A stretch of 64,000 nt of DNA from Dehalococcoidia bacterium (GCA_963555985.3 OY820591.1:1344001-1408000), one strand, 5' to 3'. Counted from the first letter of the stretch, positions 9,725 to 23,654 are shown. The notes: generated by a model not told the origin, from the letters alone. Numbers and translations: made by a program.

Positions 9725-10737
9725 CAGACAACCCCGGCAAGCGCCGAATCTCGGTCAATCTCCCCTGGAATCCCGATTTCGTCGAGACCTTCCTGCACCG
9801 CGCGCGGCTCGCCGACGAGATCGGCATCGACACGATCTCCGTAATCGAGGGCTACGGACACGACGCCTTCACCGGCCTCGCCCTACTCGCCCGCGAGACG
9901 CAGCGAGCGCGCCTCGCATCGGCGATCGTGAACGTCTTCTCGCGCACGCCCGCGACACTCGCGCAGAGCTTCGGCACCGTCGATCAGCTCTCCGGCGGAC
10001 GAGTCGTGATCGGACTTGGCGCGAGCGCACCGGGAGCGATCGAGCGCTTCCACGGCGTCAAGTTCGAGCGCCCCTTCGCGCGCCTGCGCGAGGCCATCGA
10101 ACTGATCCGCCTCTACTGGTCGCGTCGGCGCTTCGACTACGACGGCCCCACGATCCACGTAGAGCGCTCGCTGGTCACCGGCGTTGTCCCCGCTCAAGCA
10201 ACGCCGCCGATCCACGTCGCGTCGTTGCATCCCCGCTCGGTACGCCTCACCGCCGAACTCGCCGACGGCTGGATGCCCACCTGGATTCCCAATGACCGCA
10301 CTCCCGCAGCCGTCACCCAAATCCGCGACTGGACGGCCGAAGCCGGACGTGACCGCACTGCCGTTGAGGTCCGATCGCCCGGTACGGCGCTTGTGGTTGC
10401 AGATTCCGAGCGGCTGGCGCAGATCGAGCGCGAGTTCGCGCAAGGTCTCGCCTTCTTCGCCGTCCGCAACGGGCCGGGCTACTTCCATCAATTCGAGCGT
10501 CAGGGCTTCGCCGACGAAGTTGCCGCCATGCGCGACGCTTGGGCCGACGGCGGAGCGGGAGCCGCAGCTGAGATCGCGCTGGGGTTCGCCCATCGCTTCT
10601 CCGTTCGCGGCGATCTCGCCACCTGCGCCGCACATCTCGATGCGCAGGCGGCGGCAGGCGTCGATCTGCACCAGGTCTCCGTCGACACGAACGACGATCA
10701 AGCCTGGGCCGACGCGCTTGCCCGACTTGTGGGGTAA
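9715..10737 (+). CDS. LLM-class flavin/F420-dependent oxidoreductase
   Basis: RTPATLAQ..TVDQLSGGRVVIGLGAS, ELADGW. Confidence 0.88.
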   Translation: MGVTDNPGKRRISVNLPWNPDFVETFLHRARLADEIGIDTISVIEGYGHDAFTGLALLARETQRARLASAIVNVFSRTPATLAQSFGTVDQLSGGRVVIGLGASAPGAIERFHGVKFERPFARLREAIELIRLYWSRRRFDYDGPTIHVERSLVTGVVPAQATPPIHVASLHPRSVRLTAELADGWMPTWIPNDRTPAAVTQIRDWTAEAGRDRTAVEVRSPGTALVVADSERLAQIEREFAQGLAFFAVRNGPGYFHQFERQGFADEVAAMRDAWADGGAGAAAEIALGFAHRFSVRGDLATCAAHLDAQAAAGVDLHQVSVDTNDDQAWADALARLVG

Positions 10738-10790
10738 CGTCATACACGCCCAGACGAAACGATCGCCCACTCGCACGAGAGGAACACCCT

Positions 10791-11321
10791 ATGGCCGACC
10801 TGACCGGAGCTCAGATCCTCGCCCTCTTCACCGACCGCGTACTGCGCTGGACCGCGCAAGGCATGGAAGACCTCACCCAGGAAGAAGTCCATTTCCGCAC
10901 TCACACCGACCAGAACTGCATTGGCTTTGAGGCCTGGCACATCGCCCGCACCGCCGACAACTTGATCCACTTCGCCTTCGAGCGCGAGCAGCCAATCTGG
11001 ATGCAGAAGAACATGCACGAGACCTGGGGTCTGCCCAAGGTCGACCAGGGCACCGGCACATCGTTTGACGAGGTCTCCAGCTGGGTCTTCCCCGAAGGCA
11101 AGGAGATCGCCGCCTATCTCAACGATGTCGCGGACGTGATCGTGCCTCGAATCGAAGGCATGAGCGACGACTACCTCCAGTCCATCACCCGCATCGTCCC
11201 CCAGGGCGAACTCCCCAAGTGGCAGATCATCGGCCAGGTGATCATCAACCACTCCAACAACCACCTCGGCCAGATCAACGTCGGCCGCACCATGCAAGGC
11301 AAGGACGGCCTCGGCTTCTAG
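10791..11321 (+). CDS. DinB family protein
   Basis: N.IGF..WHIARTAD and C-terminal H...HLGQI metal ligands. Confidence 0.85.
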   Translation: MADLTGAQILALFTDRVLRWTAQGMEDLTQEEVHFRTHTDQNCIGFEAWHIARTADNLIHFAFEREQPIWMQKNMHETWGLPKVDQGTGTSFDEVSSWVFPEGKEIAAYLNDVADVIVPRIEGMSDDYLQSITRIVPQGELPKWQIIGQVIINHSNNHLGQINVGRTMQGKDGLGF

Positions 11322-11397
11322 GGGCGCGGCGGACCATTCTGCTCTCTACTTCCTTCTCTGTGGGAGGTGCCGCTCCCTTCCCGTTCTCCCCCCAGCG

Positions 11398-11614
11398 GAG
11401 ACTGATGCATAACTCCCTCCGCCGTCATTCCCGCAAACGGAGGCCTTTGCAAAACTCCCATTTCCGTCATTCCCGCGAACGGAGGCCTTTGCAAAACCCC
11501 TATATCCGTCATTCCCGCGAACGCGGGAATCCATGCGGCGCCTCGAGTGGCATATGAATTCCCATCTGCGAGGGAATGACGAGCTCAGCCGATCGCGGGT
11601 TATGCATCTCCCCC
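11398..11614. mobile_element. MITE family A copy carrying REP-like palindromes and two 42-bp family-B left-end units
   Basis: Left end GAGACTGATGCATAAC, degenerate right end GTTATGCATCTCCCCC, 5-bp flank CAGCG on both sides (11393-11397, 11615-11619). Confidence 0.75.
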
Positions 11615-11653
11615 CAGCGGGGAGAGATACCCACGAGCACTACGGAGGCTCCC

Positions 11654-12979
11654 GTGCCCCAATCCGCCGGCGTCCACCTCATCAACCCGATCTCCCTCAC
11701 CGAGCAGCTCGCCGCGACTCGCTCCGGCGCTCTGTCCCTAGACGAGCTGATCGAACAGGCACTGCGGCGTCTCGATCAAGTGAACCCGCTCGTTCGCGCG
11801 ATGTTGCCCGACATCCGCCAGCGCGAACGCCTCGCCTCCGAAGCCCGAACCATCTCCGAGCGCTGGCCCGATCCGGACGACCGCCCGCCCCTCTACGGCG
11901 CGCTCGTCGCCGTCAAAGACATCTTCAACGTCGACCGGATGCCGACCCGCGCCGGATCAGCCGTCCCGCCTGAGTCCTTCAGCGGCCGCGAAGCCGATGT
12001 CGTCGCCCGCCTGCGCGACGCCGGAGCGCTCGTACTCGGCAAAGCGGTCACGACCGAGTTCGCCTACTTCGCCTCCGGCGCAACTGCCAATCCCCACAAC
12101 CGCGACCACACCCCCGGAGGCTCCAGCAGCGGTTCCGCCGCCGCGATCGCCGCCGGCATCGCCCCGTTGGCGTTGGGCTCCCAGACCGTCGGTTCCGTCG
12201 TCCGCCCAGCCTCCTTCTGCGGCGTCATCGGCTTCAAGCCCTCCTACGACCGCATTCCCACGGGTGGGACGCTCTACTATTCGCCATCGGTCGATACGAT
12301 CGGCTACTTCGTCAGTTCGGCTGCCGATGCCGCCCTGGTCGCGCCGTCGCTGCTCCTCGGCTGGCGCGAGGGTGAGGATGCAGAAGCCCCGGCGCCGCGA
12401 ATCGGAGTCCCCACAGGCGCGTTCCTGGATCAGGCCGGCTCCGAGATGCACAGCGCTCTAGACGCCGCCGCTGACCGGCTGCGTGATGCCGGCATGACCG
12501 TCGAACCTGCGCCGACCCTTCACGACATTGCCGACATCAATACCCGACACCGCAATCTCACCACCTACGAGTTCGCCGAAACCCACCACGAGCGCTACGC
12601 CAAGTACGGCGCGATGTTCCGCCCGGAGAGTGCGCAACTGTACGAAGCGGGATTAGCCATCGCAGCCGAGGATGCCGAAGCAGGACGCGCCAGCCGAATC
12701 GCTCTCCGCCAGCGTCTGCACGAACGCATGGATCGCGCTGGGATCGACGCCTGGCTTGCCCCCTCCGCCGTCGGCCCTGCCCCCGACAGCCTGCGCACCA
12801 CCGGCGATCCCGCCATGAACCTGCCCTGGACTCACGCCGGGATGCCCGTGATCTCGCTCCCGTTCGGCGATGTCGACGGCCTTCCGCTCGGCCTCTCGCT
12901 GGTCGGCCGCTTCGGCCACGACGAGACCTTGCTGGGTCAGGCCGCGATGGTTGAGTCAGCCTTGGCCGCTGACAGGTGA
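11654..12979 (+). CDS. Amidase signature family protein
   Basis: [31 protein letters not shown]; GGAGG RBS before GTG 11654 (the longer ORF start lies inside the MITE). Confidence 0.9.
12891..12972 (+). repeat. Amidase 3' end, copy 1 of an imperfect ~82-bp direct repeat
   Basis: Matches 13773-13854. Confidence 0.85.
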
Positions 12980-13082
12980 CCGCAACGGACAATTCAGCAT
13001 TCGCATCAACGACCAGTACCGCATCTGCTTCGTCTGGACCGATGCTGGTCCCCACCAAGTCGAGATCACTGACTATCACTAG
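12969..13082 (+). pseudogene. higB: HigB (RelE/ParE-type) toxin, C-terminal remnant
   Basis: [30 protein letters not shown]; N-terminal two-thirds absent. Confidence 0.85.
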
Positions 13083-13084
13083 AA

Positions 13085-13440
13085 GAGACTGATGCATAAC
13101 TCCCGCCGCCGCCATTCCCGCGTTCGGAGGCCTTTGCAAAATCTCCATCTCCGTCATTCCCGCGCAGGGAGGCCGTTGCAAAACTCCCATTTCCGTCATT
13201 CCCGCGCAGGGAGGCCTTTGCAGAACCCCCATATCCGTCATTCCCGCGCACGCGGGAATCCATGCGGCGTATCGAGCGAGACGTGGATTCTCACGTTCGC
13301 AAGAATGACGAAACGCTCAGATCGAGGATTCTGCAAAGGCCTCCGTTCGCGGGAATCCAGTCTCCCTATCTGCTCAGCACTGGGTGCCTCGTTGAGTCGG
13401 AATGGCGGAAATGCGGCATCATGGGTTATGCATTGGTCTC
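13085..13440. mobile_element. MITE family A copy inserted between higB and higA
   Basis: TIRs GAGACTGATGCATAAC / GTTATGCATTGGTCTC, TSD TAGAA (13080-13084, 13441-13445). Confidence 0.85.
13127..13343. mobile_element. MITE family B nested in family A
   Basis: TIRs GAGGCCTTTGCAAAA / TTCTGCAAAGGCCTC, TSD CGTTCG (13121-13126, 13344-13349); left ends at 13127, 13169, 13211. Confidence 0.8.
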
Positions 13441-13457
13441 TAGAAAGGAGAGCAGAA

Positions 13458-13772
13458 ATGGTGCGCATTCCGACCAGCCGAGAGCCGACTCACCCGGGTT
13501 CGATGCTGCTGTACGAGTTCCTGCAGCCCATGGAGTTGACCCAGCGCGAGTTGGCCACTGCGATCCACGTGCCATTTCAGCGCGTGAACGAGGTGGTTCG
13601 GGGCAGACGCGGCATAACGCCGAGTACGGCGCTGCGGCTCGCTAGGTACTTCGGCACGACTCCCGACTTTTGGATGAATCTCCAATTGCGCTGGGACCTC
13701 TATCACGCGCAGCAGGCCGAAGCAGCAGAAATCGAGACCATCCAGCCATTGCAACCCGTGAACGCCAGATGA
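13458..13772 (+). CDS. higA: HigA family addiction-module antitoxin
   Basis: PTHPG..L..EFL, RVNEVVRGRRGITPSTALRLARYFGTTPDFWMNLQ; AAGGAG RBS. Confidence 0.92.
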   Translation: MVRIPTSREPTHPGSMLLYEFLQPMELTQRELATAIHVPFQRVNEVVRGRRGITPSTALRLARYFGTTPDFWMNLQLRWDLYHAQQAEAAEIETIQPLQPVNAR

Positions 13773-13861
13773 GCCTCTCCCTGGCTGGCTGCTTCGGCCA
13801 CGACGAGACCTTATTGGGGCAGGCCGTGATGGTTGAGAAAGCTCTGGCGACTGAGCAATAG
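13773..13861 (+). repeat. Second, diverged copy of the amidase 3' end
   Basis: Encodes [28 protein letters not shown], versus [28 protein letters not shown] in the intact gene. Confidence 0.85.
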
Positions 13862-14016
13862 CGACACGCCCGCAGAGACTCGACCTGCTCTTCGGCTGGT
13901 GCGCCCTCATGAGCGGACTTCCACATTCCCAACGACAGAGATGCCGTCTGTTCGGGCGGTAGCCTGCCGATGGCCGCATCCACCCATCTTGAGGCCTGAA
14001 ACCCGAACGCTTTCCG

Positions 14017-15081
14017 ATGAGGACTCTCAACACACTCCGCGGCGTCTTCGTTGGGTTGATTGCCTTTGCGGCCGCGCAAGTACTCTCGCTGCTTCCTCAA
14101 GAGTTCACCCTCCGTCTGCTGGAACGGAACCTTGCCAGACGCCGGACACGTGATGCTCTGGCTGAGCGGCCGGACGGCATCCACGTCCTGCTCTGCGGGG
14201 CCGGCGGCCCGCTCACGGACATCAAGCGTTCCGGCCCCTGCGTGGCCGTCCAGGCCGGAGCGCACCTGTATGTGATCGACGCCGGCACCAATGGCGCGCG
14301 CAACCTGGGACGGTTCTCGGTCAATCCGGGACGAGTCGAGGCGGTCTTCCTGACCCACGCGCACTCGGATCACATTGACGGCCTGGGCGAACTCGGCATG
14401 TTGCGCTGGATCGGCAGCGGCAGCGAGCGACCGCTGCCCGTTCATGGCCCGCCGCCGGTCAGCGCTGTCGCCGCCGGTTTCAATCAGGCATACGCGGCGG
14501 ACTTCGGCTACCGGACTGCCCACCACGGCTCCGAGATCGCGCCGCCGAGCGGAGCCGGACTGGAGGCCTTGCCGTTCCCGTTGCCGGGCGACGGTGAACT
14601 CCACGCCGTGCTTGAGACCGAGGACGGCGTTCGAGTCAGCGCATTCTCCGTGTCGCACGCGCCCGTCTGCGAGGCCGTGGGCTATCGGATCGACTACCGG
14701 GGACGCTCGATCGTGGTGAGCGGCGACACCGCGTACTCCGCCAATCTGATTCAACATGCGCGCGGCGTCGACCTGCTCGTGCACGATGCGCTAGCGAGCA
14801 GGCTGACCGAGCGGATCGCCGCCGCTGCGGAGTCGGCTGGCAACCGGCGCGCGGCCAAGGTGCTGCGCGACGTGCCCTCGTACCACGCCACTCCGGTGGA
14901 GGCTGCCGAGGCCGCAGCCGCGGCCGGCGCGAAACAGTTGCTGCTCTATCACATCGTCCCGCCGTTGCCGACGTCTGCGCTGGAACGAGTCTTCCTCAGC
15001 GGCGTCGCCGATGTCTACGAGGGCAGAGTCGCCCTCGGTCGAGACGGCACGCTCATTTCGCTGGACGAAGGGTCGCAATAG
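14017..15081 (+). CDS. MBL-fold metallohydrolase (RNase Z/arylsulfatase-like) with N-terminal membrane anchor
   Basis: THAHSDHIDG, VSGDT, LVHDA, YHATP, YHIVPP. Confidence 0.85.
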   Translation: MRTLNTLRGVFVGLIAFAAAQVLSLLPQEFTLRLLERNLARRRTRDALAERPDGIHVLLCGAGGPLTDIKRSGPCVAVQAGAHLYVIDAGTNGARNLGRFSVNPGRVEAVFLTHAHSDHIDGLGELGMLRWIGSGSERPLPVHGPPPVSAVAAGFNQAYAADFGYRTAHHGSEIAPPSGAGLEALPFPLPGDGELHAVLETEDGVRVSAFSVSHAPVCEAVGYRIDYRGRSIVVSGDTAYSANLIQHARGVDLLVHDALASRLTERIAAAAESAGNRRAAKVLRDVPSYHATPVEAAEAAAAAGAKQLLLYHIVPPLPTSALERVFLSGVADVYEGRVALGRDGTLISLDEGSQ

Positions 15082-15114
15082 CGTCCTGGCGGGCCCAACC
15101 AAGCAGTCTCGAAC

Positions 15115-15189
15115 TGGTCCCCCCGGGAGGATTCGAACCTCCGCGCGCGGTTTAGGAAACCGGTGCTCTCTCCCCTGAGCTACGGGGGG
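15115..15189 (-). tRNA. tRNA-Arg(CCT)
   Basis: CCCCCCGTAGCTCAGGGGAGAGAGC..TTCCTAA..GGTTCGAATCC..ACCA. Confidence 0.9.
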
Positions 15190-15269
15190 CCGCTCGAATG
15201 TATCAGCGCGGTTGCGTAACCTGCGCCTCAGTCCCTCCTGCCGCGATCCAGCACACCGAGAGTTCTCTC

Positions 15270-15521
15270 ATGCCGCTCTACGAGTACTACTGCCGCGCCT
15301 GCAACGAGAAGTTCACCAAGCTCCGCCCGATGAGCGCCGCCGCCGAACCCTACGACCACGACTGCGGCCAGACCGCCCAGAAAGTCCTCACCGCCGCCGT
15401 CGTCACCGTCGCCGGACAGTTTGCCGAGGCCGAGGCGGCCGAAGCCGCTCCGGTCGGCGGCGGCTGCGCCTGTGGCCGAGGATCGTGCGGCTGCGGCGGC
15501 GGCATGGGCGCGTTGAACTAG
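15270..15521 (+). CDS. FmdB family zinc-ribbon protein
   Basis: MPLYEYYCRAC..F, Cys/Gly-rich tail GGGCACGRGSCGC. Confidence 0.85.
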   Translation: MPLYEYYCRACNEKFTKLRPMSAAAEPYDHDCGQTAQKVLTAAVVTVAGQFAEAEAAEAAPVGGGCACGRGSCGCGGGMGALN

Positions 15522-15580
15522 CACGCTCTCCCGCCCCGCCGGACGCGACTGATTCCTACCCATCGGCGATTGGCTGAACG

Positions 15581-17062
15581 ATGAACCACCGCTTGCTGCT
15601 CCTGTCAGCGGGAACGCTGCTCACCGCCGCTGTCGTCGCTGCGATCCTGATCAGCGGTCTGATCCCGCTCGATTTCGCCGTCTCCGACAAGCACGGCGAC
15701 AGCCAAATCGACATGCGCGTACAAGCTCGGCAAACGGAGAGCGGTCGAGTCGAGGTGCGGGCCCAATCCAGCGCCGGCAGCGGCGAATGGATCACTCACA
15801 CGCCCGAGGCCCGCTTCCTCCCCGCCGAACCCCAGCCCGGCAGCTGGTACTCCAGCAATTCGTTCGCCGTGAGCGCCCCCGCTGCGGCGCCGGACAGCTC
15901 CGACGAAGCGCGCTACACCCAGTCCTTCGTCGAGCAGGCGATCGACTACTACGAACATCACGGCCGTGAGGCGACGATCGAGTACTACAGCACCCCCGGC
16001 AGCGCCGAGGGGCAGTGGTACATGTTCATCATCGATGAAGCGGATGTCATCATCGCCCATCAGAATCCGGATCTGATCGGAGCCCACGCCGACGACGTCA
16101 ACGGCCCCGACGGCTACCCGGCCGGGCGCATGGTCGTCGCCTCCGCCACTGAGGACGGCGCCTGGGTCGATTACCAGTTCAGCAATCTCGCCAGCGGAGA
16201 AGACGAGATCAAGCACTCCTGGGTCGTGCGTCACGACGGCCTGATCTTCGGCTCCGGCTGGTACGAGCAAGCTCCGTCGAAAGTTCACGCGCCGGGCGCG
16301 TTCACGCAGTCCTACGTGGCGCGAGCGCTGGAGCTGTACCGCGTGCTGGGCCGCGAGGCGACGCTGGAGTACTACAGCACGCCCGAGAGCGCCGACGGCC
16401 AGTGGTACATGTTCATCCACACGACCGAGGGCACGCGCGTCGCGCACGCCCACCGCGCCAACCGTCCGGGCTGGCTGGGCAGCAACGTCGGCGTGGGCGG
16501 CGTCGACGTGACCGGCTACAACTACGGCCAGGACATGCTCACCATCGAGGATCGCGGCTGGGTCGCCTACGTCTTCGTCAACCCCGCCGACCAAGACCAG
16601 TACCAGCGCAAGCACAGTTGGATCGTCACCCACGACGGCCTCCAGTTCGGCTCCGGTTGGTACGACCGCCACTACGACCTGGCGGGCGAAGACCCGGCCG
16701 GCTACTCGAAGTTGCTCGTCCAGCAGGCGATTGACCTGTACGACGCCGAGGGACGCCAAGCGGCGCTCGACTACTACAGCTCGCTCGAGAGTGTGGACGG
16801 CGAGTGGTATGTGATCATCATCCACCCCGACGGCACGCGCCTGGCGCATCCCTTCCTGCCGCTGGGCGAGAACATTCTCGACAGCGGCCCCGACATCACC
16901 GGCTACGACTTCCGCCCGGACATCGTCGCGGTCGAAGACCGCGATTGGGTGAGCTACGTGTTCGAGAATCCCGACACCGGAGAGCAGAACCAGAAGCACA
17001 CCTGGATCGTGCGCCACGACGGACTGCTCTTCGCCGCCGGCTGGTACGAAGAGATCGAGTAA
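15581..17062 (+). CDS. Secreted or membrane-anchored protein with three tandem Cache-like domains
   Basis: N-terminal hydrophobic segment; three repeats of V.QAI..Y...GREAT..YYS....GQWY.FI ... WV.Y.F.NP....KHSW...HDGL.FGSGWY. Confidence 0.8.
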   Translation: MNHRLLLLSAGTLLTAAVVAAILISGLIPLDFAVSDKHGDSQIDMRVQARQTESGRVEVRAQSSAGSGEWITHTPEARFLPAEPQPGSWYSSNSFAVSAPAAAPDSSDEARYTQSFVEQAIDYYEHHGREATIEYYSTPGSAEGQWYMFIIDEADVIIAHQNPDLIGAHADDVNGPDGYPAGRMVVASATEDGAWVDYQFSNLASGEDEIKHSWVVRHDGLIFGSGWYEQAPSKVHAPGAFTQSYVARALELYRVLGREATLEYYSTPESADGQWYMFIHTTEGTRVAHAHRANRPGWLGSNVGVGGVDVTGYNYGQDMLTIEDRGWVAYVFVNPADQDQYQRKHSWIVTHDGLQFGSGWYDRHYDLAGEDPAGYSKLLVQQAIDLYDAEGRQAALDYYSSLESVDGEWYVIIIHPDGTRLAHPFLPLGENILDSGPDITGYDFRPDIVAVEDRDWVSYVFENPDTGEQNQKHTWIVRHDGLLFAAGWYEEIE

Positions 17063-17116
17063 AGCGGCAGTGACGGAGGGTAGAGTTCGCACAGGCCGAG
17101 ATCCGTTCCCCTCCTA

Positions 17117-17249
17117 GAGACCGATGCATAACCCTTGTTTCGTCATTCCCGCGAAAGCGGGAATCCATGTGGTGCCTCGAGTGGCATCTGGACCCCCATT
17201 TGCGAGGGAATGACGAGCTCAGCCGATCGCGGGGTTATGCATCGGTCCC
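17117..17249. mobile_element. MITE family A, minimal 133-bp copy
   Basis: TIRs GAGACCGATGCATAACCC / GGGTTATGCATCGGTCCC, TSD TCCTA (17112-17116, 17250-17254), internal CGTCATTCCCGCGAAAGCGGGAATCC dyad. Confidence 0.85.
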
Positions 17250-17257
17250 TCCTACCC

Positions 17258-17944
17258 TCACGCCCGGCGCAGGACCCACCAACTCACTCCGCTCAGCGCG
17301 GCCAACGGAACCAGAATCGCCGCGCCGATCAGCAGCGTCGTGTCGAAGAAGAAGCGCTGCGGGAAGAGCTGAATCAGCGCGTCGCGCGAACTCAGCTGCC
17401 AGAGATCGTTGGTGAAGAAGATCAGGTGGAAGCTGCGGAAGGCGGAGTCGAACCCGCTCAGCCCGAAGATCGCCAGCGCGACGAACGCGATCGCGACGAT
17501 CCCGCAGGCGATCAGGACTGATCGCGCCAGGCTGCGCAGCGCCCGCTCGGCCCGCCAGATCACAAACGCGATGAAGGCGATGATGTAGCCCAGCGCGGCC
17601 CAGCCCGCGTCGTAGACCCGCGCCATCAGCCGCTTCACGTCGACCATGTGCAGCACTTCGCGCTCGGAGTAGAAGGGCGCGCCGCCGACGCTGACCGTCA
17701 GCAGTTCGTCGTCGTTGGAGAGGTAGTCGCGCGTTTCGGCGGCGACCCGATCCACTTCCTCCGGCGTCAGACCGGTGCGCGAGACGGCGTCGTAGCGCTC
17801 GAAGCCGCGCTCCCACCAGGCGTCCGAGGTCGCGGCATAGCGCACCGCGAGCGCAATCGGCAGCACCAGCAGCGCCAGCGCCAGCGCCAGGTGCGCCAGC
17901 GTCCAGGCCAGGCGAGCCGCGATCAGCAGAGCGATAGGATTCAT
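17258..17944 (-). CDS. TIGR01906-like integral membrane protein
   Basis: REVLHMVDVKRL, F.SFHLIFF.NDLW, LIQLFPQRFF; several TM segments. Confidence 0.85.
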   Translation of the reverse strand: MNPIALLIAARLAWTLAHLALALALLVLPIALAVRYAATSDAWWERGFERYDAVSRTGLTPEEVDRVAAETRDYLSNDDELLTVSVGGAPFYSEREVLHMVDVKRLMARVYDAGWAALGYIIAFIAFVIWRAERALRSLARSVLIACGIVAIAFVALAIFGLSGFDSAFRSFHLIFFTNDLWQLSSRDALIQLFPQRFFFDTTLLIGAAILVPLAALSGVSWWVLRRA

Positions 17945-17980
17945 GCGTCGCCTAGAGCCTATCGAGTGCCGGAGTCTCAG

Positions 17981-18901
17981 ATGTTGCGGAACCTCGCCAA
18001 GATCATTGAACTTGCCGGACTCGAAGACGAAGCGACGTTCAGCGTCGTGCGCTCGTCCGCCGCCGCAGCGCCGCTCACGACGGGCGCGCTCTTGGTGCTG
18101 GTAGACGATCCCCTTGGCCTGGCGACCACGCTGCGCCACTATCCGGCGGAACACGCCGTCCGCGTCGTTGATCGCGACGAGCGCGTCAGCGCCTCCACTG
18201 TGGCCGAACTCTTGCAAGACAGCGAGCACGCCGCCGCGCTGATTCTCGATCCGATCGATCTGTTCGAGCTGCGCAACGCGCCAGAGGGCGTGCGCGGCGT
18301 GATCGACCGCCTGCGCGATCCCGACGACGGCTGTCCCTGGGACAACGCGCAGACGCATCTGAGCCTGCGCCCGCATCTGCTCGAAGAGACCTACGAGGTG
18401 CTCGAAGCGATCGCCGGGGGCGACCCCGCCCACCTCTGCGAAGAGTTGGGCGATCTGCTGATGCAGGTGGTGCTGCACGCGAAGCTGGCCGAGCAGGACG
18501 GGCACTTCAGCCTCGACGACGTGGCCGAGGGCATTCGCGCCAAGCTGGTGCGCCGTCACCCTCATGTCTTCGGCGACGCCTCGGCCGACTCTGCCGCTTG
18601 GGTGGAGGGCGCTTGGGAGCGTCTGAAAGCGAGGGAGCGTCCCAACCGCGAGTCCGTGCTCGACGGCGTGCCCAAGACGCTGCCGGCGCTGGCGCGAGCC
18701 CAGTCCTTGCTCGGCCGCGCGGAGCGCAACGGCTTTGCTCGCCAAGCCGGTGGGAGCGACGATCCGGGCGAGCGGGCGCTTGACCTGGTGCTGGAGGCAA
18801 GGGCGGCCGGGATCCAGCTTGAGGATGCGGTCCGGGATGCTCTGGATCGTTTTGAGCGGGGTGTTCGTGCGGTGGAGGCGGAGGGTCGGGGCGGGGGGTG
18901 A
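17981..18901 (+). CDS. mazG: MazG family nucleotide pyrophosphohydrolase
   Basis: GCPWD..QTH.SL..HLLEETYEV, EELGDLLMQVV.H, KLVRRHPHVFG; second domain shortened. Confidence 0.85.
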   Translation: MLRNLAKIIELAGLEDEATFSVVRSSAAAAPLTTGALLVLVDDPLGLATTLRHYPAEHAVRVVDRDERVSASTVAELLQDSEHAAALILDPIDLFELRNAPEGVRGVIDRLRDPDDGCPWDNAQTHLSLRPHLLEETYEVLEAIAGGDPAHLCEELGDLLMQVVLHAKLAEQDGHFSLDDVAEGIRAKLVRRHPHVFGDASADSAAWVEGAWERLKARERPNRESVLDGVPKTLPALARAQSLLGRAERNGFARQAGGSDDPGERALDLVLEARAAGIQLEDAVRDALDRFERGVRAVEAEGRGGG

Positions 18902-18933
18902 GTGGTTTCGGTGGTTCGGGATTCTCGTCTGCG

Positions 18934-19053
18934 GGGAGGTTTGCGTATGGCAAAGACCGTCATACCCGCGCTTGCCGCGGGTATCTCGCTGTGATCTGCA
19001 CGGTCGTCGCTCGCGCGGCAATGACGGAGCACGTCGGCCATTGCAAAGCTCTC
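18934..19053. repeat. Degenerate MITE-B-like element with a different internal palindrome
   Basis: Ends GGGAGGTTTGCG / TTGCAAAGCTCTC; internal CGTCATACCCGCGCTTGCCGCGGGTAT...CGCGGCAATGACG. Confidence 0.55.
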
Positions 19054-19116
19054 CCCCCCTTGCGGGGGGAGATGCCGAAAGCCTGCCCCAGGCCTGAACT
19101 GGGGGCAGAGGGGGGT
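19051..19116 (+). repeat. CTCCCCCC..GCGGGGGGAGATG..CAGAGGGGG palindromic repeat, copy 1
   Basis: Related copies at 20257-20324 and (inverted) 47229-47279. Confidence 0.75.
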
Positions 19117-19201
19117 ATCCCATTTGCACCGCCATCGGCGTCTGAACCAGCGCTTCTATCCCATATGTGAACAGTCCCTAACGCCGGAAACTCACTCCAA
19201 A

Positions 19202-19303
19202 GAACACAAATTCCCACTCTGTCAACCAGACAACAACCCCAATCACCCCAATCACGACCAAACCATGTAACGTCGTCAGAACCTACGTATCGTACAAGCG
19301 TAC
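19202..19303 (+). promoter_or_regulatory. LexA/SOS-box-like sites upstream of the orphan HTH gene
   Basis: GAAC-acaa-ATTC (19202), GAAC-ctac-GTAT (19279), GTAC-aagc-GTAC (19292); equivalent sites in the paralog leader. Confidence 0.5.
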
Positions 19304-19322
19304 TCGAAAGGAAGCCGCAACC

Positions 19323-20225
19323 ATGTACATCTCACCCCGCCGACGCCGCCGCATCCTCGAAGCCCACCGCCTCCGCCAGGAGGGACACTCCCTCCGCGCC
19401 ATCGCCCAATTCCTCGACGTCTCCGCTGCCACCGTCCACGCCGACCTCAAACTGCTCGAAACCCACTGGAGCGACCTCGTCGAACAAGCCGCCGACGACC
19501 TCCTCCTCAACCAAATCAATCAGCTCGAACGTCGCCTCGTCAAAGTCCTCGAACGCAACCCCTTCGACGTCTTCGACCGCTACGTCGTCAGCCTCGGCGA
19601 GGGCTACTTCCGCGCCTGGACCGACACCCTCTCCGCCACCGATATCGTCCGCGTCCAACAGGCCCACACCGCCGAAATCGCACTCCTCTTCCGCGAAACC
19701 CGGCGCGCCATCCAGGACCTCCACCGCCGCGCCGGACAACGCCGCGACCTGGCCGCACAATCCGACTCCGACCGCGAACCCGACTACCCCGCCGAAGAAC
19801 TCACCGATCCCCCGAGCCCCGGCGAAGAGCTCCTGATCCAACAACGCCGCGACGACCGCGCCCGAACCCAAGCCGAATTCCTCCCGGACGCCCCGGACTC
19901 GCTGAACATCCCTGAACACCCTGAACCCGCTTCAGCCCAGCCAGCAAAGGAAAACCTCCAAACCGGCCCGCCCGAAAAAATTTCCCCTGAACAACCTGAA
20001 CACCCACCCGGCGACGCCCCCGAAGACAGCCCCGAACATCTCCCCGTCGCCCCCAAAACCATGCTCCAAGCCATCCACGACGAGATCGTCGCCGACAACC
20101 CCCTCCTCAAAAGCAAAAACGAGGACGAACTCATCGCCTTCCTCGACCAACTCGCCCTCCAAGTCCAACCCGAAGACCCAACCGAACCCCCCATCCCCAT
20201 CTACACCGACGCCGCCGGCAGCTAA
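19323..20225 (+). CDS. Orphan N-terminal HTH protein, paralog of 48330-48833
   Basis: AAGGAAG RBS; G.SLRAIAQFLDVSAATVHADL helix-turn-helix; Pro/Glu-rich linker. Confidence 0.8.
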   Translation: MYISPRRRRRILEAHRLRQEGHSLRAIAQFLDVSAATVHADLKLLETHWSDLVEQAADDLLLNQINQLERRLVKVLERNPFDVFDRYVVSLGEGYFRAWTDTLSATDIVRVQQAHTAEIALLFRETRRAIQDLHRRAGQRRDLAAQSDSDREPDYPAEELTDPPSPGEELLIQQRRDDRARTQAEFLPDAPDSLNIPEHPEPASAQPAKENLQTGPPEKISPEQPEHPPGDAPEDSPEHLPVAPKTMLQAIHDEIVADNPLLKSKNEDELIAFLDQLALQVQPEDPTEPPIPIYTDAAGS

Positions 20226-20256
20226 ACAGAACCGCTCCCAAAACTCCCCCTCCCCT

Positions 20257-20324
20257 CTCCCCCCCTTGCGGGGGGAGATGTCCCGTAGAGCCTGCCCCCG
20301 CGAAGGCGGGGGGACAGAGGGGGT
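20257..20324 (+). repeat. Palindromic repeat, copy 2
   Basis: CTCCCCCCCTTGCGGGGGGAGATGTCC..GGACAGAGGGGGT. Confidence 0.75.
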
Positions 20325-20355
20325 CCGCACGCCTCTTCGGGAAGCCCGCACCCCA

Positions 20356-20690
20356 CCGTCATTCCCGCGCCGGGAGACCATTGCAAAACCCCACTTCCGT
20401 CATTCCCGCGCAGGCAGACCGTTGCAAAATCCCCATATCCGTCATTCCCGCGAACGCGGGAATCCACGTCCCACTCGATACGCCGCATGGATTCCCGCCT
20501 GCGGAGGCCCTTGCGAAACCCCCATTTCCGTCATTCCAGGCTTGACCTGGAATCTCGTTCGGAGTTCGGTCTATCGGGTCAGGCGAGATTCCAGCTTTCG
20601 CTGGAATGACGAGAGCAGCGGGAATGCCAATGTGCAAAGGCCTCCCTGCGCGGGAATGACGAAATCAGCCGATCGCGAAGCGATGTATCA
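20356..20690. repeat. Nested REP/MITE array
   Basis: Repeated CCGTCATTCCCGCG half-sites, B-type left ends at 20374 and 20415, complete B element at 20504-20644. Confidence 0.8.
20504..20644. mobile_element. MITE family B, complete 141-bp copy
   Basis: TIRs GAGGCCCTTGCG / TGCAAAGGCCTC, TSD CCTGCG (20498-20503, 20645-20650). Confidence 0.8.
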
Positions 20691-20747
20691 ACCTCTGAGA
20701 GGCAAGAGGCGTCTGCACGATTATCCCCGGAACTGTGCAAACAGACC

Positions 20748-22991
20748 CTAGCTCCGGGTCAGGTTCGCAATCGAGGCGAGTAGGCGCTTGACGCCGGTTT
20801 CCTCGAATCTGACCGTGACCTCGGCGTCCGCTCCGATCGGGCGCAGGGAGACCACGACGCCCGCGCCGAAGGTCTCGTGCGAGACGCGATCGCCGGGGTT
20901 GAGGCCGATCTGGACGGGTTCCGCCTGGGCGTCGTCGAAGCTGTCGAAATCGTCCCAGCGGACGGTGCGGTTGCGTGCGGGGCGCACGTCCTGTCCGACC
21001 TGGGCGCTCGCGGCGCGATCGAGCTGCACCAGTTCGGCGGGCAGATCGAGCAGGAATCGGGAGGGGGAGTTGTGCCCGGAGCGGCCCTGATAGGCGCGGC
21101 GGAAGGCGTAGAGCAGATGCAGCTCGCGTTCGGCGCGGGTCATGCCGACATAACAGAGCCGCCGCTCTTCCTCCAACTGGGCGGGATCGTCCATCGACAA
21201 CTGGTGCGGCAGCAGGTTCTCCTCCAGTCCCGCCATGAACACGACCGGGAACTCCAGCCCCTTGGACTGGTGCAGCGTGATCAGCGTGACCGCGTCGGGC
21301 GGGCCTTCGGGCAGGTCGTCTACGTCGGCGACCAGGGCGACATCTTCGAGGAAGGCGTCGAGCGCCGCGCCCGGCGCGATCTCCGCGTAGTTCTCGGTGA
21401 CGGTGATCAGCTCCTGCACGTTTTCCCAACGGCTCTCGGCGTCGGTTTCGTTGTCCGCCTGACGCTCGAGGTAGTCGCGGTAGCGAGTCTTGAGCAAGAT
21501 CGTGCGGAGCGCGGCGCCCAGCGGCTCGCGCGCGGCCTGGGCCCGCGCCTCCTCGATCAAACCGACGAAGGCGTGCAGCGTGCTCGCCGCTTTGCGCGAC
21601 GCCGCTGGCGGCGCGACCTGACCGTTGAGCGCATCCGCGTCCCTGCCCGAAGCGGCCTCTGCCGCCTGCATCAAGGTGCGCCCGTGCATTGCCGCCCAGT
21701 CGGTCAGGTTTAGCACCGTTTTCGCGCCTACGCCCCGCGTGGGCACGTTGACGACGCGATTGAAGGCGACCGAGTCCGCCGGATTCCGGACCAGACGCAG
21801 GTAGGCGAGCAGATCGCGCACTTCGCGCCGGTCGTAGAAGCGAGTCGCGCCGACGAGTCGGTAGGGCAAGCCGTGCTGAACGAACGCCTCCTCGATCGGC
21901 CGCGACTGCGCGTTGGTGCGGTAGAGCACGGCCGCGTCGCCCGGGCGCATCGCGCCCTCCCGGATCCCGCCTTCGATCGCCGCCGCGATGTACTCCGCCT
22001 CATCCTGTTCGCTGTAGGCCTCATGCACTCGCGGCAGGGGGCCGTCGTGGTTCTCGGTGATCAGCTGCCGCTCGATGCGGTCGCGTCCGCGCGCGATCAC
22101 CGCGTTGGCGACGTCCAGGATCTGCTGCGTGGAGCGGTAGTTGTTGTTCAGCTGGACTTCGGCAGCGGCGGCATGGTCGTTGATGAAGTAGCGCAGGTTG
22201 CGGATATCGGCCGAGCGCCAGGAGTAGATCGACTGATCCGGATCGCCCACGACGGTCAAGTTCTGGGTACCTCCCGACCAGGCGCGGGCGAGCTGATATT
22301 GCACCGTGGAGGTGTCCTGGAACTCGTCCACCAGCACGTGCTCGAATCGATCCTGGTAGTACTGCCGCGCCTCGGCGAGCTCGAACAGTTGCAGTGTGCG
22401 CAGCAGCAGGTCGTCGAAGTCGAGCGCTTGGGCTTCGCGGAGCGCGGCCGCGTAGCGTTCCCAGACTCGCGCCGCCACCTCGTCGAAGTAGTTTCCGGTC
22501 GCCGCCGCGAAGTCCTCCAACGAGGTGCCTTCGCTCTTGCTGCGCGAGATTCGGCTCAACATCGCGCGGGGCGCGTACTGCTTCGGATCGAGCTGGAGTT
22601 CTTTGAGCGCGGCGCGCACGATCTGCATCTGGTCGTCGTCGTCGAAGATCTGAAACTGTCGCGGCACCGCGATCGCATCGCCGCGCGAGCGCAGCATCCG
22701 CACGCAGATGCGGTGGAAGGTGCCCAGCCAGACCTGTTCGCTCTGCTCTTCGCCGATCAGCGCTTCCAGCCGTCCGCGCATCTCGCGCGCGGCGCGGTTG
22801 GTGAAGGTGACCGCCAGAATGCGCCAGGGCGCGACGCCCTGCTCGATCAGCCAGGCGATCCGGTGGGTGACGACGCGGGTCTTGCCCGAGCCGGGTCCGG
22901 CCACGATCAGCAGCGGCCCGTCGGGATGCGTGACCGCTTCGCGCTGGGCGTCGTTGAGTTGTTCGAGCTGGATGGAGGAACGAGTGGTCAT
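20748..22991 (-). CDS. pcrA: UvrD/PcrA family DNA helicase
   Basis: LNDAQREAV, AGPGSGKT, VDEFQD, GDPDQSIYSWR, NYRST, EEERRLCYVGMTRA, C-terminal Tudor-like domain. Confidence 0.93.
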   Translation of the reverse strand: MTTRSSIQLEQLNDAQREAVTHPDGPLLIVAGPGSGKTRVVTHRIAWLIEQGVAPWRILAVTFTNRAAREMRGRLEALIGEEQSEQVWLGTFHRICVRMLRSRGDAIAVPRQFQIFDDDDQMQIVRAALKELQLDPKQYAPRAMLSRISRSKSEGTSLEDFAAATGNYFDEVAARVWERYAAALREAQALDFDDLLLRTLQLFELAEARQYYQDRFEHVLVDEFQDTSTVQYQLARAWSGGTQNLTVVGDPDQSIYSWRSADIRNLRYFINDHAAAAEVQLNNNYRSTQQILDVANAVIARGRDRIERQLITENHDGPLPRVHEAYSEQDEAEYIAAAIEGGIREGAMRPGDAAVLYRTNAQSRPIEEAFVQHGLPYRLVGATRFYDRREVRDLLAYLRLVRNPADSVAFNRVVNVPTRGVGAKTVLNLTDWAAMHGRTLMQAAEAASGRDADALNGQVAPPAASRKAASTLHAFVGLIEEARAQAAREPLGAALRTILLKTRYRDYLERQADNETDAESRWENVQELITVTENYAEIAPGAALDAFLEDVALVADVDDLPEGPPDAVTLITLHQSKGLEFPVVFMAGLEENLLPHQLSMDDPAQLEEERRLCYVGMTRAERELHLLYAFRRAYQGRSGHNSPSRFLLDLPAELVQLDRAASAQVGQDVRPARNRTVRWDDFDSFDDAQAEPVQIGLNPGDRVSHETFGAGVVVSLRPIGADAEVTVRFEETGVKRLLASIANLTRS

Positions 22992-23078
22992 CGCAGCGAG
23001 CATAGCTGCGAGATCGGGATATAGTGGCAGCGCGGGTATCGGGGCGGGCGTCGGGCTGACGCGCTTGCGAGGCGGAAC

Positions 23079-23654
23079 ATGGTCGCTGCGGCGGCGGGCG
23101 GATCGTTCGAGAGTTGGAGCGCTGCTGGGGTTGATTGGCCCGGCGGCAGTCCTGAGAACACCGGCCTGATCATCGCCATCATCGTGGGCGCGTATTTGGT
23201 GGCGCTGTGGATTTCGGCGGCGGTCTGGACGGCGCGCGACATTCGCAACCGGACGCACGATCCGGTGGCGCAGATCGTCTCGACCCTGATCGTGCTCGTG
23301 TTCAACTTCCCCGGGCTCGTGCTCTACCGCGTGCTGCGTCCGCCGCTGACCTTGCAGGAGGCGGAAGAGCATCAGTTGGAGACCGACGCGCTGACGCGCG
23401 AGCTCCAGCAGCACCCCAGCTGCCCGCGCTGCCAGGCGGAGATCCTGCCCGACTATCTCGCCTGTCCCCGTTGCGCGGCGCTTCTGCGGCGTCAGTGCGA
23501 GTCCTGCGCGCGCATCCTCGATCCGGCCTGGGTGATGTGTCCCTGGTGCGCGCATCGGGTTGAGACCGAAGCGGCGAATGGCACGTCCGAGTCTGCCGTA
23601 CGATCAGCTACGCCCGAAGCGAGCCCGAGCCAGGAGAGTGCGACAGATGGCTGA
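23079..23654 (+). CDS. Membrane protein with C-terminal double zinc ribbon
   Basis: Two TM helices, then CPRC..CPRC..CESC..CPWC. Confidence 0.8.
   Translation: MVAAAAGGSFESWSAAGVDWPGGSPENTGLIIAIIVGAYLVALWISAAVWTARDIRNRTHDPVAQIVSTLIVLVFNFPGLVLYRVLRPPLTLQEAEEHQLETDALTRELQQHPSCPRCQAEILPDYLACPRCAALLRRQCESCARILDPAWVMCPWCAHRVETEAANGTSESAVRSATPEASPSQESATDG

Follow-up and report, generated by a model that had tools for sequence, protein, structure and literature searches.

Known hairpin repeats and related elements

The NTS/SRM hairpins, which are the single-strand targets of Ssn GIY-YIG nucleases (PMC11893778), are among the described repeats most similar to those presented here. In the portions of the original report available to us (Chenal et al. 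2025, PMC11893778), the features held in common with our locus are the NTS motif and its one-sided CGTC tag; candidate counterparts of the nuclease genes are two short genes for a lone GIY-YIG domain, each with hairpin variants on either side. Those portions treat hairpins and nuclease, whereas capped elements with inverted ends that split hairpins and leave a duplication are not described there, and the terms 'MITE' and 'NIME' are absent from its whole text.

The CGTC-1 REP and dRS3 repeats, as covered in the accessible sections of two further reports (PMC3733652, PMC1797815), likewise exhibit a CGTC tag, an 8-bp stem starting with AT, a 4-nt loop and a frequent CCA tail, and they also cluster into mosaic arrays that vary between strains. 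Within those sections, CGTC REPs are listed in five phyla, with Chloroflexi not among them, and a dedicated transposase was not found (Di Nocera et al. 2013, PMC3733652); NIME arrays are stated to be unseen outside Neisseria (Bentley et al. 2007, PMC1797815). Neisseria NIMEs are described there as RS units between complete dRS3 copies, whereas the units described below end in conserved inverted repeats, beyond which lie half hairpins and a duplicated centre, and on the basis of these flanks we rejected their assignment to the NIMEs.

The CGTC-1 REP dimers of Halothiobacillus neapolitanus, which reside in 41-bp palindromes, resemble our 133-bp and 141-bp elements in forming a head-to-head doublet within inverted flanks, and in the excerpted account hairpin-less 'target' copies are absent, as they are here (0 found; PMC3733652). 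Those dimers were interpreted as REPs inserted in a palindromic target, whereas in our case the flanks appear to act as transposon ends, with the duplications lying outside them. An intergenic hairpin repeat also serves as the landing site of the REP-targeting insertion sequences ISPsy8, ISPa11, ISPpu9/10, ISRm22, ISRm19 and E. coli IS1397; according to the parts of that survey at hand (PMC1525189), these are coding elements that do not carry their own target, whereas ours are non-coding and carry the target, and hence become nested. Finally, the Correia/NEMIS, RUP and Nezha MITEs (as listed in the available part of PMC3733652) share with our elements a small size, the absence of coding sequence, multiple copies located between genes, and inverted ends bordered by duplications. 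Our elements differ in that they target the centre of a hairpin repeat and have this hairpin built into their own ends, and in that our searches found no parent insertion sequence.

Two split hairpins and an unoccupied site

The window, by which we mean the whole stretch of 64,000 nucleotides that was analysed (GCA_963555985.3 OY820591.1:1344001-1408000, Dehalococcoidia bacterium), contains two elements of the type we call family B.

13114-13126, + strand: left half of a split hairpin (ATTCCCG) and the first CGTTCG (13121-13126)
13127-13343, + strand: family B element of 217 bp, which begins GAGGCC(T/C)TTGC and finishes GCAAAGGCCTC
13127, 13169 and 13211, + strand: three stacked 42-bp left-end modules of this element
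13240-13259, + strand: its intact hairpin, then a 27-nt spacer
13287-13306, + strand: its degenerate second hairpin, with the right end at 13330-13343
13344-13356, + strand: second CGTTCG (13344-13349) and right half of the split hairpin (CGGGAAT)
20361-20503, + strand: host cluster of the 141-bp element, with a half hairpin and then two stacked left-end modules (20374, 20415)
20444-20463, + strand: intact hairpin of the host cluster, then a spacer, the left half of a second hairpin (20491-20497) and the first CCTGCG (20498-20503)
20504-20644, + strand: family B element of 141 bp, with the same start and finish
20645-20661, + strand: second CCTGCG (20645-20650), right half hairpin CGGGAAT and its GACG tag
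52222-52245, - strand: unoccupied hairpin GTTCCCG CCTGCG CGGGAAT GACG, whose centre is that of the 20.5-kb target

As the preliminary description of this DNA had stated, both elements have GAGGCC..GGCCTC ends, split the centre of an ATTCCCG-N6-CGGGAAT palindrome, and are bordered by copies of its central 6 bp; the 141-bp element, for example, is flanked by ATTCCCG-CCTGCG on the left and CCTGCG-CGGGAAT on the right. The 217-bp element has only one right end versus three left-end modules. In the 141-bp element, the end caps enclose a head-to-head doublet of ATTCCAG-type hairpins (20533-20553, 20588-20607; folding z -3.44), and 11 full-length copies of it exist with 92-100% identity, one of them on the duplicate contig C5. 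The unoccupied hairpin was previously taken to equal the 20.5-kb target, and it does match the rebuilt target over 23 contiguous bases (TTCCCGCCTGCGCGGGAATGACG), but its outermost arm base is G, not A. No end-like sequence adjoins it.

Judged by its sequence, the split palindrome is the already published NTS/SRM hairpin (dRS3, CGTC-1 REP), an identity that was missed when the palindrome itself was noticed. It fits the published NTS motif, CGTCATTCCCGCG-MAV-GCGGGAAT, including the one-sided CGTC tag, and its predicted fold has a stem of 7-8 pairs closed by a 4-nt loop (about -8 kcal/mol). Genome-wide, there are 88 matches to the exact NTS-type pattern and 0 to the reversed control, and every intact copy on contig C1 (82/82) has GTC on exactly one side. 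An end-like 15-mer is located 24-27 nt upstream of 60 of these 82 hairpins, against a background of 1.65%. Because the hairpin thus lies just inside the elements' own ends, we consider the self-targeting to be real. The earlier view that the same palindrome lies inside the element's left end holds for these 60 copies, but the 141-bp element contains ATTCCAG-type variants rather than ATTCCCG.

Target preference and duplications across the genome

The association of family B ends with palindrome centres and 6-bp target-site duplications (TSDs), for which a genome-wide check had been proposed, extends well beyond the window. CCCG occupies exactly positions -10..-7 at 65 of 85 family ends on contig C1, compared with 0.66% of 200,000 random positions. 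Among 28 complete copies, nine are flanked by identical hexamers and 15 by hexamers with at most one mismatch, whereas the corresponding means after the right flanks are shuffled are 1.29 and 4.54, and none of 100,000 shuffles reaches the observed values. The junction pattern occurs 48 times in the genome, and its backwards-read control 0 times. When ends are scored more strictly, exact repeats flank 14 complete copies; their length is 6 bp in 11 copies and 4, 5 or 7 bp in a single copy each, and palindromic arms are present in 11 of the 14. Near-identical 141-bp copies (97-100%) bear different duplications (CTTTCG, CCTGCG, CGCAGG), and once other genomes are added, perfect duplications are found in 19 of 51 end pairs.

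The first and last bases are complementary in every exact duplication (14/14), and therefore the border between end and duplication is ambiguous by one base per side; the true duplication could be 4 bp rather than 6. The E. coli insertion sequence IS1397 inserts in the loop of its own hairpin target with a 3-4-bp duplication. Some young copies, 99.3% identical, have duplications with one or two mismatches, which should not arise from fresh cut-and-paste unless the loops were converted later.

The elements take 141-bp and 133-bp forms, plus 42 bp for each extra module, and have no coding capacity; an ORF is held only by a copy loaded with an IS30-family element. The terminal inverted repeats comprise 14-bp ends, GAGGCCTTTGCAAA, on both sides, and family B shares with a sister family, C, a conserved terminal inverted repeat of 14-16 bp (GAGRCCNTTGCRAA / GAGACYGATGCATAAC).

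Nesting and the sister family

Family C is represented in the window by the following features.

11398-11614, + strand: family C element that contains a pair of solo left-end modules of family B (11440, 11482) but lacks a B right end
13080-13084, + strand: TAGAA, left copy of the 5-bp duplication of the next element, in which a higB-like remnant has its stop codon, TAG
13085-13440, + strand: outer family C element of 356 bp including its passenger, an inverted repeat with TSD TAGAA
13441-13445, + strand: TAGAA, right copy
17117-17249, + strand: un-nested family C element of 133 bp at a non-palindromic site

The outer element at 13085-13440, with ends GAGACTGATGCATAAC and GAGACCAATGCATAAC (reverse complement), is the carrier of the hairpin that hosts the 217-bp family B element, and it is predicted to fold into concentric hairpins (z -6.99). 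The 141-bp element similarly occupies the second hairpin of another cluster. The nesting noted earlier is thus evident at both loci, and the proposed avoidance of genes agrees with the intergenic position of the clusters within the window. The element at 11398-11614 is flanked by CCAGCG within a TCTCCCC/GGGGAGA palindrome. The un-nested element, however, shows that family C also resides at non-palindromic sites: it is bordered by the duplication TCCTA (17112-17116 and 17250-17254), and duplications of 5-6 bp at non-hairpin sites include TAGAA, TCCTA, TCACA and CGAACA for this family. The 'structure-specific' targeting proposed initially is not separable here from sequence-specific targeting.

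Recombination among stacked modules

As solo left-end modules, the stacked 42-bp units lack corresponding right ends, and left-type ends exceed right-type ends by 49 to 16. Contig C5 contains a second copy of the region with 97.5% identity, which lacks the module at ~20375-20415. The two versions differ by exactly one module, with the crossover lying within shared sequence, and by a 3-nt loop replacement that is the single observed case of loop conversion. Of 13 pairs of adjacent modules, three consist of near-identical tandem copies (25-26 of 26 bases), and in one array a rare arm variant recurs along with its flank. Construction of these arrays by nested insertion alone is not supported, as some of the units are plain tandem duplications.

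Given these observations, it is conceivable, albeit unlikely, that the whole arrangement is a mosaic generated by recombination, slippage and gene conversion among hairpin modules without self-targeted transposition, and that the conserved ends are simply parts of larger duplicated units. The excess of left-type ends, the tandem copies, the repeated arm variant and the C1/C5 differences all fit this explanation, as do flanks that are themselves repeated modules, such as GGAGCCTGTCCCCG, and the dynamic arrays of Neisseria are ascribed to recombination in the accessible part of an earlier report (Bentley et al. 2007, PMC1797815). Recombination nevertheless leaves unexplained the exact central splitting of hairpins with the loop kept by both halves, the matching of left and right hexamers far above random pairing, the different duplications around near-identical copies in different hairpins, and the duplications at non-hairpin sites. 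Moreover, the other ten of the 13 adjacent pairs are no closer to each other than random pairs (21.1 vs 20.65 of 26).

Transposition versus site-specific recombination

Xer sites consist of inverted arms around a 6-bp centre, as do the hairpins targeted here, and the genome encodes two tyrosine recombinases. A host Xer-type enzyme could in principle recombine the arm-6 bp-arm junction of an excised circle with an arm-6 bp-arm hairpin, which would make a transposase gene unnecessary in a genome that contains near-identical copies and no matching transposase. Mismatched hexamers in young copies would also be expected if the spacers of element and target differ. We consider this route distinctly unlikely, however, because a site-specific recombinase would not yield the 5-6-bp duplications of family C at unrelated non-palindromic sites, where one family B-like copy also has its duplication. 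In addition, duplication length varies from 5 to 7 bp, the arms of element and target share no sequence, and the same element is found with at least three different spacers, which spacer homology would forbid. On sequence grounds, the related copies with 5-6-bp duplications off hairpins point to a cut-and-paste transposase.

Candidate ssn genes

Two genes for 96-aa single-domain GIY-YIG proteins (candidate ssn) are each bracketed by CGTC-tagged hairpin variants (ATTCCAG; ATACCCG/ATTGCCG), and a check for hairpin-flanked GIY-YIG/ssn genes found no gene with the ATTCCCG form on its flanks. The hairpin doublet upstream of the first of these genes also makes up the core of the 141-bp element, and a relative has as many as 56 hairpins that lack end caps. 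By analogy with the presumed movement of REPINs by RAYT enzymes, Ssn nucleases might move hairpin doublets via single-stranded DNA, with the conserved ends as passengers. Strand joining is not a known activity of GIY-YIG nucleases, nor would flanking duplications and conserved inverted ends be expected from a single-strand cut. Furthermore, in one element the distances from the two tags to the ends are 25 and 33 nt, and thus no single cut distance fits. Although the available part of the Ssn report likens the hairpin-gene-hairpin layout to an insertion sequence (Chenal et al. 2025, PMC11893778), it also describes N. meningitidis SsnA as cleaving its single-stranded substrate not in the loop but a few nucleotides before the hairpin, on the upstream side, and we find an Ssn-based origin very doubtful.

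Search for the mobilising enzyme

No long element and no transposase gene with B ends was found in the genome. An autonomous insertion sequence, whose identification had been suggested as a check, was likewise not found in the 3.5 kb beside junction matches at 62 loci from 185,579 species or at 17 loci on metagenome contigs. Searches of the genome for Y1_Tnp, DDE_Tnp_1, rve, IS110, Transposase_mut, ISL3 and DDE_3 revealed nothing except an unrelated IS30-family element; the 0 matches to Y1_Tnp bear on the REPIN/RAYT criterion of a Y1 (HUH) transposase. The proposal that the elements are deletion derivatives of an IS5-family (IS1106-like) insertion sequence can be all but dismissed, since DDE_Tnp_1 (IS4/IS5-type) has 0 matches in this 96%-complete genome while controls were positive in 9 of 14 genomes and no search recovered a long element with B ends. 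In favour of such an origin, the ends start with GAG, a putative resemblance to this family, and the duplication would be 4 bp if the border ambiguity were resolved the other way. A frequent association of IS1106 with neighbouring dRS3 hairpins is also described for Neisseria (Tobes and Pareja 2006, PMC1525189, in the part available).

The IS30-family element (NF033563, 217 bits vs a cut-off of 80) is the sole multi-copy insertion sequence of the genome. It starts CTAGTCTCAC and finishes GAACCCACC, ends that are unlike those of family B, and we therefore rejected the possibility that family B derives from it. In nine of its ten copies it has landed in the stem of an NTS/SRM hairpin, where it leaves a 4-5-bp duplication.

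Distribution in other genomes

The distribution is patchy: this genome has 48 junctions, whereas 200 further genomes from its class have none. Across 185,579 species there are 62 exact junction matches, 47 of which occur in 21 assemblies labelled Chloroflexota or Dehalococcoidia. At 11 loci in those assemblies, short elements (120-445 bp) differ in their interiors but share these ends, and they are bordered by CGGGAAT-type arms and a 6-bp duplication without mismatch.

Proposed mechanism and implications

We judge it probable that families B (141-bp and 133-bp forms) and C are non-autonomous transposons mobilised in trans, and that their clusters are reshaped by recombination. Conserved ends with their duplications, preferred targets, nested insertions, module differences and a patchy occurrence are all observed directly; from these data we infer the type of enzyme, the cut positions and a route of insertion followed by deletion. 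Each end carries, on its inner side, a CGTC-tagged NTS/SRM hairpin with an 8-bp stem and a 4-nt loop. A transposase acting in trans would make staggered cuts ~1 bp into each side of a hairpin stem, such that the duplication would equal the loop plus two bases, or 6 bp for the usual 4-nt loop; a 7-bp duplication at a 5-nt loop is the one case that supports this rule. Family B strongly favours hairpins, and as every copy adds hairpins, insertions would accumulate in the same intergenic spots. Deletion between similar inner and outer bodies could then produce solo left-end modules, and unequal crossover could add or remove 42-bp units.

More speculatively, and with rather low expectation that it is correct, the elements may belong to a Chloroflexota-wide superfamily of end-capped hairpin carriers, whose transposase would read the dyad of the NTS/dRS3-type hairpin and cut at the stem-loop border whatever the loop length, giving duplications of loop plus two bases and self-feeding, NIME-like arrays. 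If this were true, it would provide a general route for the multiplication of Ssn-type hairpins, a matter left open in the literature as far as the accessible texts extend. Mini-transposons that land in the loops of hairpins they also carry would offer a partial explanation for the growth of repeat clusters.

Ends and duplications of the two elements

The source assembly comprises 3.33 Mb in 11 contigs (65% G+C, 96% complete, contamination estimate 7.5%), and two members of family B, which are short non-coding elements with inverted ends, lie within the window. Their flanks are as the preliminary description gave them, with each element placed between the halves of an ATTCCCG-N6-CGGGAAT hairpin whose central hexamer appears on both sides. 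An intact site that had been equated with the reconstructed 20.5-kb target is identical to it across 23 bases, but the outermost arm base differs.

Family B elements and unoccupied site
Window 13127-13343: B element, 217 bp; left flank ATTCCCG-CGTTCG, right flank CGTTCG-CGGGAAT
Window 20504-20644: B element, 141 bp; left flank ATTCCCG-CCTGCG, right flank CCTGCG-CGGGAAT
Window 52222-52245: unoccupied hairpin

The proposal that such ends lie at palindrome centres throughout the genome, with 6-bp target-site duplications, was borne out. A family B end was defined on the main contig (C1) as a sequence with at most two changes from GAGGCCTTTGCAAA and with GTCAT no more than 45 nt away. CCCG is located exactly at positions -10 to -7 in 65 of the 85 ends so defined, compared with 0.66% of 200,000 random positions, and the remaining 20 mostly adjoin degenerate arms. 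Flanking hexamers are identical in 9 of 28 complete copies and carry at most one mismatch in 15, values that were reached in none of 100,000 shuffles of the right flanks (means 1.29 and 4.54, respectively). Among the 16 copies with clean arms, eight perfect duplications were observed against 1.56 expected (reached in 2 of 100,000 shuffles). Because the shuffles fall short of the observed values, a limited variety of loop sequences does not account for the duplication. The 141-bp element is present in 11 full-length copies with 92-100% identity, one of them on a duplicate contig, and near-identical copies bear differing duplications. Several young copies have imperfect duplications.

The hairpin is carried by the elements

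The palindrome is the CGTC-1 REP, a hairpin class treated by Di Nocera et al. 2013 (PMC3733652), and likewise the Neisseria dRS3 repeat and the NTS/SRM motif, which Chenal et al. 2025 (PMC11893778) showed to be what SsnA, a small GIY-YIG nuclease, targets in single-stranded DNA. All 82 intact copies on C1 are asymmetric, with GTC before one arm only, and single-strand folds yield 7-8 pairs and a 4-nt loop. The suggestion that the element carries its own target palindrome is upheld by an end-like 15-mer located 24-27 nt upstream of the tag in 60 of these 82 hairpins, against 1.65% at 50,000 random positions. Half hairpins directly followed by an element end number 65.

The genome encodes two single-domain GIY-YIG proteins of 96 aa that share 64% identity; their genes (excerpted loci L131:1489-1779 and L132:1438-1728) are each bracketed by CGTC-tagged hairpin variants (ATTCCAG-type; ATACCCG/ATTGCCG-type). 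Both proteins are candidates for Ssn nucleases. A 147-bp family B-like element has struck the hairpin downstream of the first gene, and the core of the 141-bp element corresponds to the hairpin doublet upstream of this gene, to which end caps have been added. Among relatives, the hairpin occurs in 9 of 31 genomes searched, with up to 56 copies in one. These hairpins are mostly free of caps, so the caps have been added in certain lineages only.

A sister family and the mode of movement

The inverted ends of the superfamily take the form GAGRCCNTTGCRAA or GAGACYGATGCATAAC, the latter belonging to family C, a sister family with the same build that shares 11 of 16 end bases with B by hand count. 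Its complete copies have direct repeats of 5-6 bp.

Complete copies of family C
Window 13085-13440: repeat TAGAA, non-palindromic site
Window 17117-17249: repeat TCCTA, non-palindromic site
C1:1788642: repeat TCACA, non-palindromic site
C1:37989: repeat CGAACA, non-palindromic site
Window 11398-11614: repeat CCAGCG, within a different GC-rich palindrome

With strict end scoring, the exact flanking repeats of 14 complete superfamily copies measure 6 bp in 11 cases and 4, 5 and 7 bp in one case each; where the repeat is 7 bp, the hairpin loop is 5 nt. The first and last bases of the repeat are complementary in all 14 copies, and thus the border between end and duplication is uncertain by one base per side. 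The duplication might be the bare loop.

Three explanations other than transposition face the same observations, namely duplications at non-hairpin sites, variable duplication length, and near-identical copies with different duplications. On these grounds we consider it unlikely that the arrays are a mosaic formed by recombination only. Xer-type site-specific recombination, which would act at the arm-6 bp-arm sites, is rather improbable, and movement driven by Ssn via a single strand is more improbable again. Counting against transposition itself are the imperfect duplications of several young copies and an enzyme that was not found.

The junction, wherein an element end abuts a half hairpin, has 48 matches in this genome versus none in 200 other genomes sampled from its class, a patchiness that fits horizontal spread. 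Across 185,579 species its exact pattern was found at 62 loci. Of these, 47 come from Chloroflexota- or Dehalococcoidia-labelled assemblies (21 in all), and a scattered remainder of 15 is near a rough estimate of ~9 chance matches. Judging by the labels of the genomes that share the junction, the source genome probably belongs to Chloroflexota as well. At 11 of these loci, short elements of 120-445 bp differ in their interiors and agree in their ends; each has matching arms and a 6-bp duplication free of mismatches.

Search for the moving enzyme

The genome (96% complete) has no match to Y1_Tnp, DDE_Tnp_1, rve, IS110, Transposase_mut, ISL3 or DDE_3. It encodes two tyrosine recombinases, and the one insertion sequence that it holds in several copies belongs to the IS30 family and has ends unrelated to B. 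Neither the genome nor the fetched loci yielded a long element that combines B ends with a duplication, and no autonomous partner for family B turned up in them. The IS5/IS1106 link that had been proposed is unsupported because the searches with transposase profiles and for long elements came up empty, and descent from IS5 is barely credible.

Metagenome contigs yielded 17 junction matches, which we attribute to chance because none carries a hairpin arm. Among 88 script-listed ORFs adjoining junctions in other genomes, inspection of the first 60 residues by eye revealed no obvious transposase. No Rfam family matches the elements, and the sole match in window 10000-22000 is a tRNA.

Two candidates were rejected. 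A weak match to an IS481 model at C1:2521607 proved to be a regulator with an HTH, encoded among genes for ABC transporters, and not a transposase. A 1184-bp unit (C1:128438-129621) shares its ends with B, is flanked by an exact duplication and holds an ORF for a 338-aa transposase; nine other IS30 copies share only its inner 1040-1068 bp and differ in their flanks, and therefore an insertion sequence has entered one hairpin of a 141-bp element here. This insertion sequence (excerpted locus L001:584-1651; G000 C1:128521-129588; transposase 338 aa, NF033563 217 bits) has 10 copies with 97-100% identity. Nine of the 10 lie at the same spot in the left stem of NTS-type hairpins (GGATTCC-IS-TTCCCGC) with a 4-5-bp duplication, and thus two unrelated elements land in this hairpin.

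Nesting and remodelling of the arrays

The claim that insertions build nested arrays holds in part. The 217-bp B element is inserted in a hairpin of the C element at 13085-13440, with a separate duplication for each, and the 141-bp element occupies the second hairpin of another cluster. However, the 42-bp units that form the stacks are left-end modules standing alone, and the 65 hairpin-abutting ends comprise 49 of left type and 16 of right type. Three of 13 adjacent module pairs agree at 25-26 of 26 positions, rare variants included, and hence are tandem duplications. The other 10 agree on average at 21.1 of the 26, much as random pairs do (20.65, sd 2.17), with pairs inside the window scoring 21, 22 and 23.

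We propose that insertion would come first and recombination afterwards. Deletion between similar inner and outer bodies may leave solo left modules, and unequal crossover could add or remove units. Contig C5, a second copy of window 11357-24442 (97.5% identical), lacks exactly one module (~20375, a 41-bp indel), with the crossover within shared sequence. The imperfect duplications of young copies are ascribed to loop conversion, with one documented instance, a 3-nt loop replacement between C5 and C1 at window 13207.

Contigs C2-C11 are second copies of parts of C1 (95-99% identical; strain variants or duplications), and differ from it by replaced segments of 0.4-3 kb that lie between conserved blocks and are not bounded by repeats. 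As a source of empty/filled pairs they gave nothing beyond the module indel of C5. As regards orthologous empty sites, the nearest genomes compared belong to other genera; identity over the neighbouring gene reaches no more than 78%, and the intergenic parts cannot be aligned. Four public runs, available as short-read contigs that end at repeats, contain no contig spanning either element and no joint removing one, and are uninformative either way. The opposite order of events, with hairpin doublets entering a palindrome formed by the two ends, was discarded, as no hairpin-less end pairs occur within 28-100 bp.

Other repeats and genes around the clusters

The nested cluster at 13085-13440 has on one side a remnant of a HigB-like toxin gene (window 12969-13082), a C-terminal part that matches Pfam positions 56-83 of 91 with a score below the cut-off, and on the other a HigA-like HTH gene that is intact (13458-13772). 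The stop codon of the remnant sits within the TAGAA duplication of the outer element. Other hairpin families share the intergenic spots (window 20245-20330 and 18959-18984), one being a long GC-rich nested palindrome (CCCCTCTCCCCCC..GGGGGGAGATGTC..) and another a second CGTC-tagged hairpin with ATACCCGCG arms that is very abundant genome-wide.

A ~0.6-kb repeat unit (excerpted locus L002:452-2219; G000 C1:664751-666518) has ~25 genome matches of roughly at least 0.5 kb and an ORF for a 120-aa protein of no known family with an acidic C-terminal tail. Five copies are followed by a gene for a 472-aa protein like terminase large subunits (Terminase_3/6N; phrog_2 E 6e-23), with 87-90% identity. 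These terminase-linked units are stand-alone, 2 kb long and edged by complex GC-rich palindromes, and are not prophages. Dispersed 1-kb units embedded among hairpin modules (excerpted loci L003:155-1006, L004:423-1103 and L007:333-1109) encode 226-283-aa proteins whose sole recognisable domain is an N-terminal HTH.

Relation to published work and significance

Each component is known already: the hairpin and its nuclease, MITEs, and insertion sequences that target REPs. Di Nocera et al. 2013 (PMC3733652) found no dedicated transposase for CGTC-type hairpins, Bentley et al. 2007 (PMC1797815) propose a recombinase of unspecified identity for mosaic arrays, and Chenal et al. 2025 (PMC11893778) liken the layout to an insertion sequence and go no further; the text of the last mentions neither 'MITE' nor 'NIME'. 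A full-text literature search of main texts found no account of these components in combination, of small elements with end caps that carry the NTS hairpin and enter the loops of its other copies with a duplication, or of NIME-like arrays of comparable anatomy outside Neisseria.

The present observations place the hairpin inside small elements with clear transposon hallmarks that prefer other hairpin copies as landing sites. If the enzyme is found, its hairpin-centred integration activity could become a tool. For genomes with hairpins at hundreds of copies, the elements offer a concrete, testable mechanism for the growth of NTS/dRS3 mosaic arrays, and they provide an example of a mobile element that creates its own harmless place between genes and stays there.
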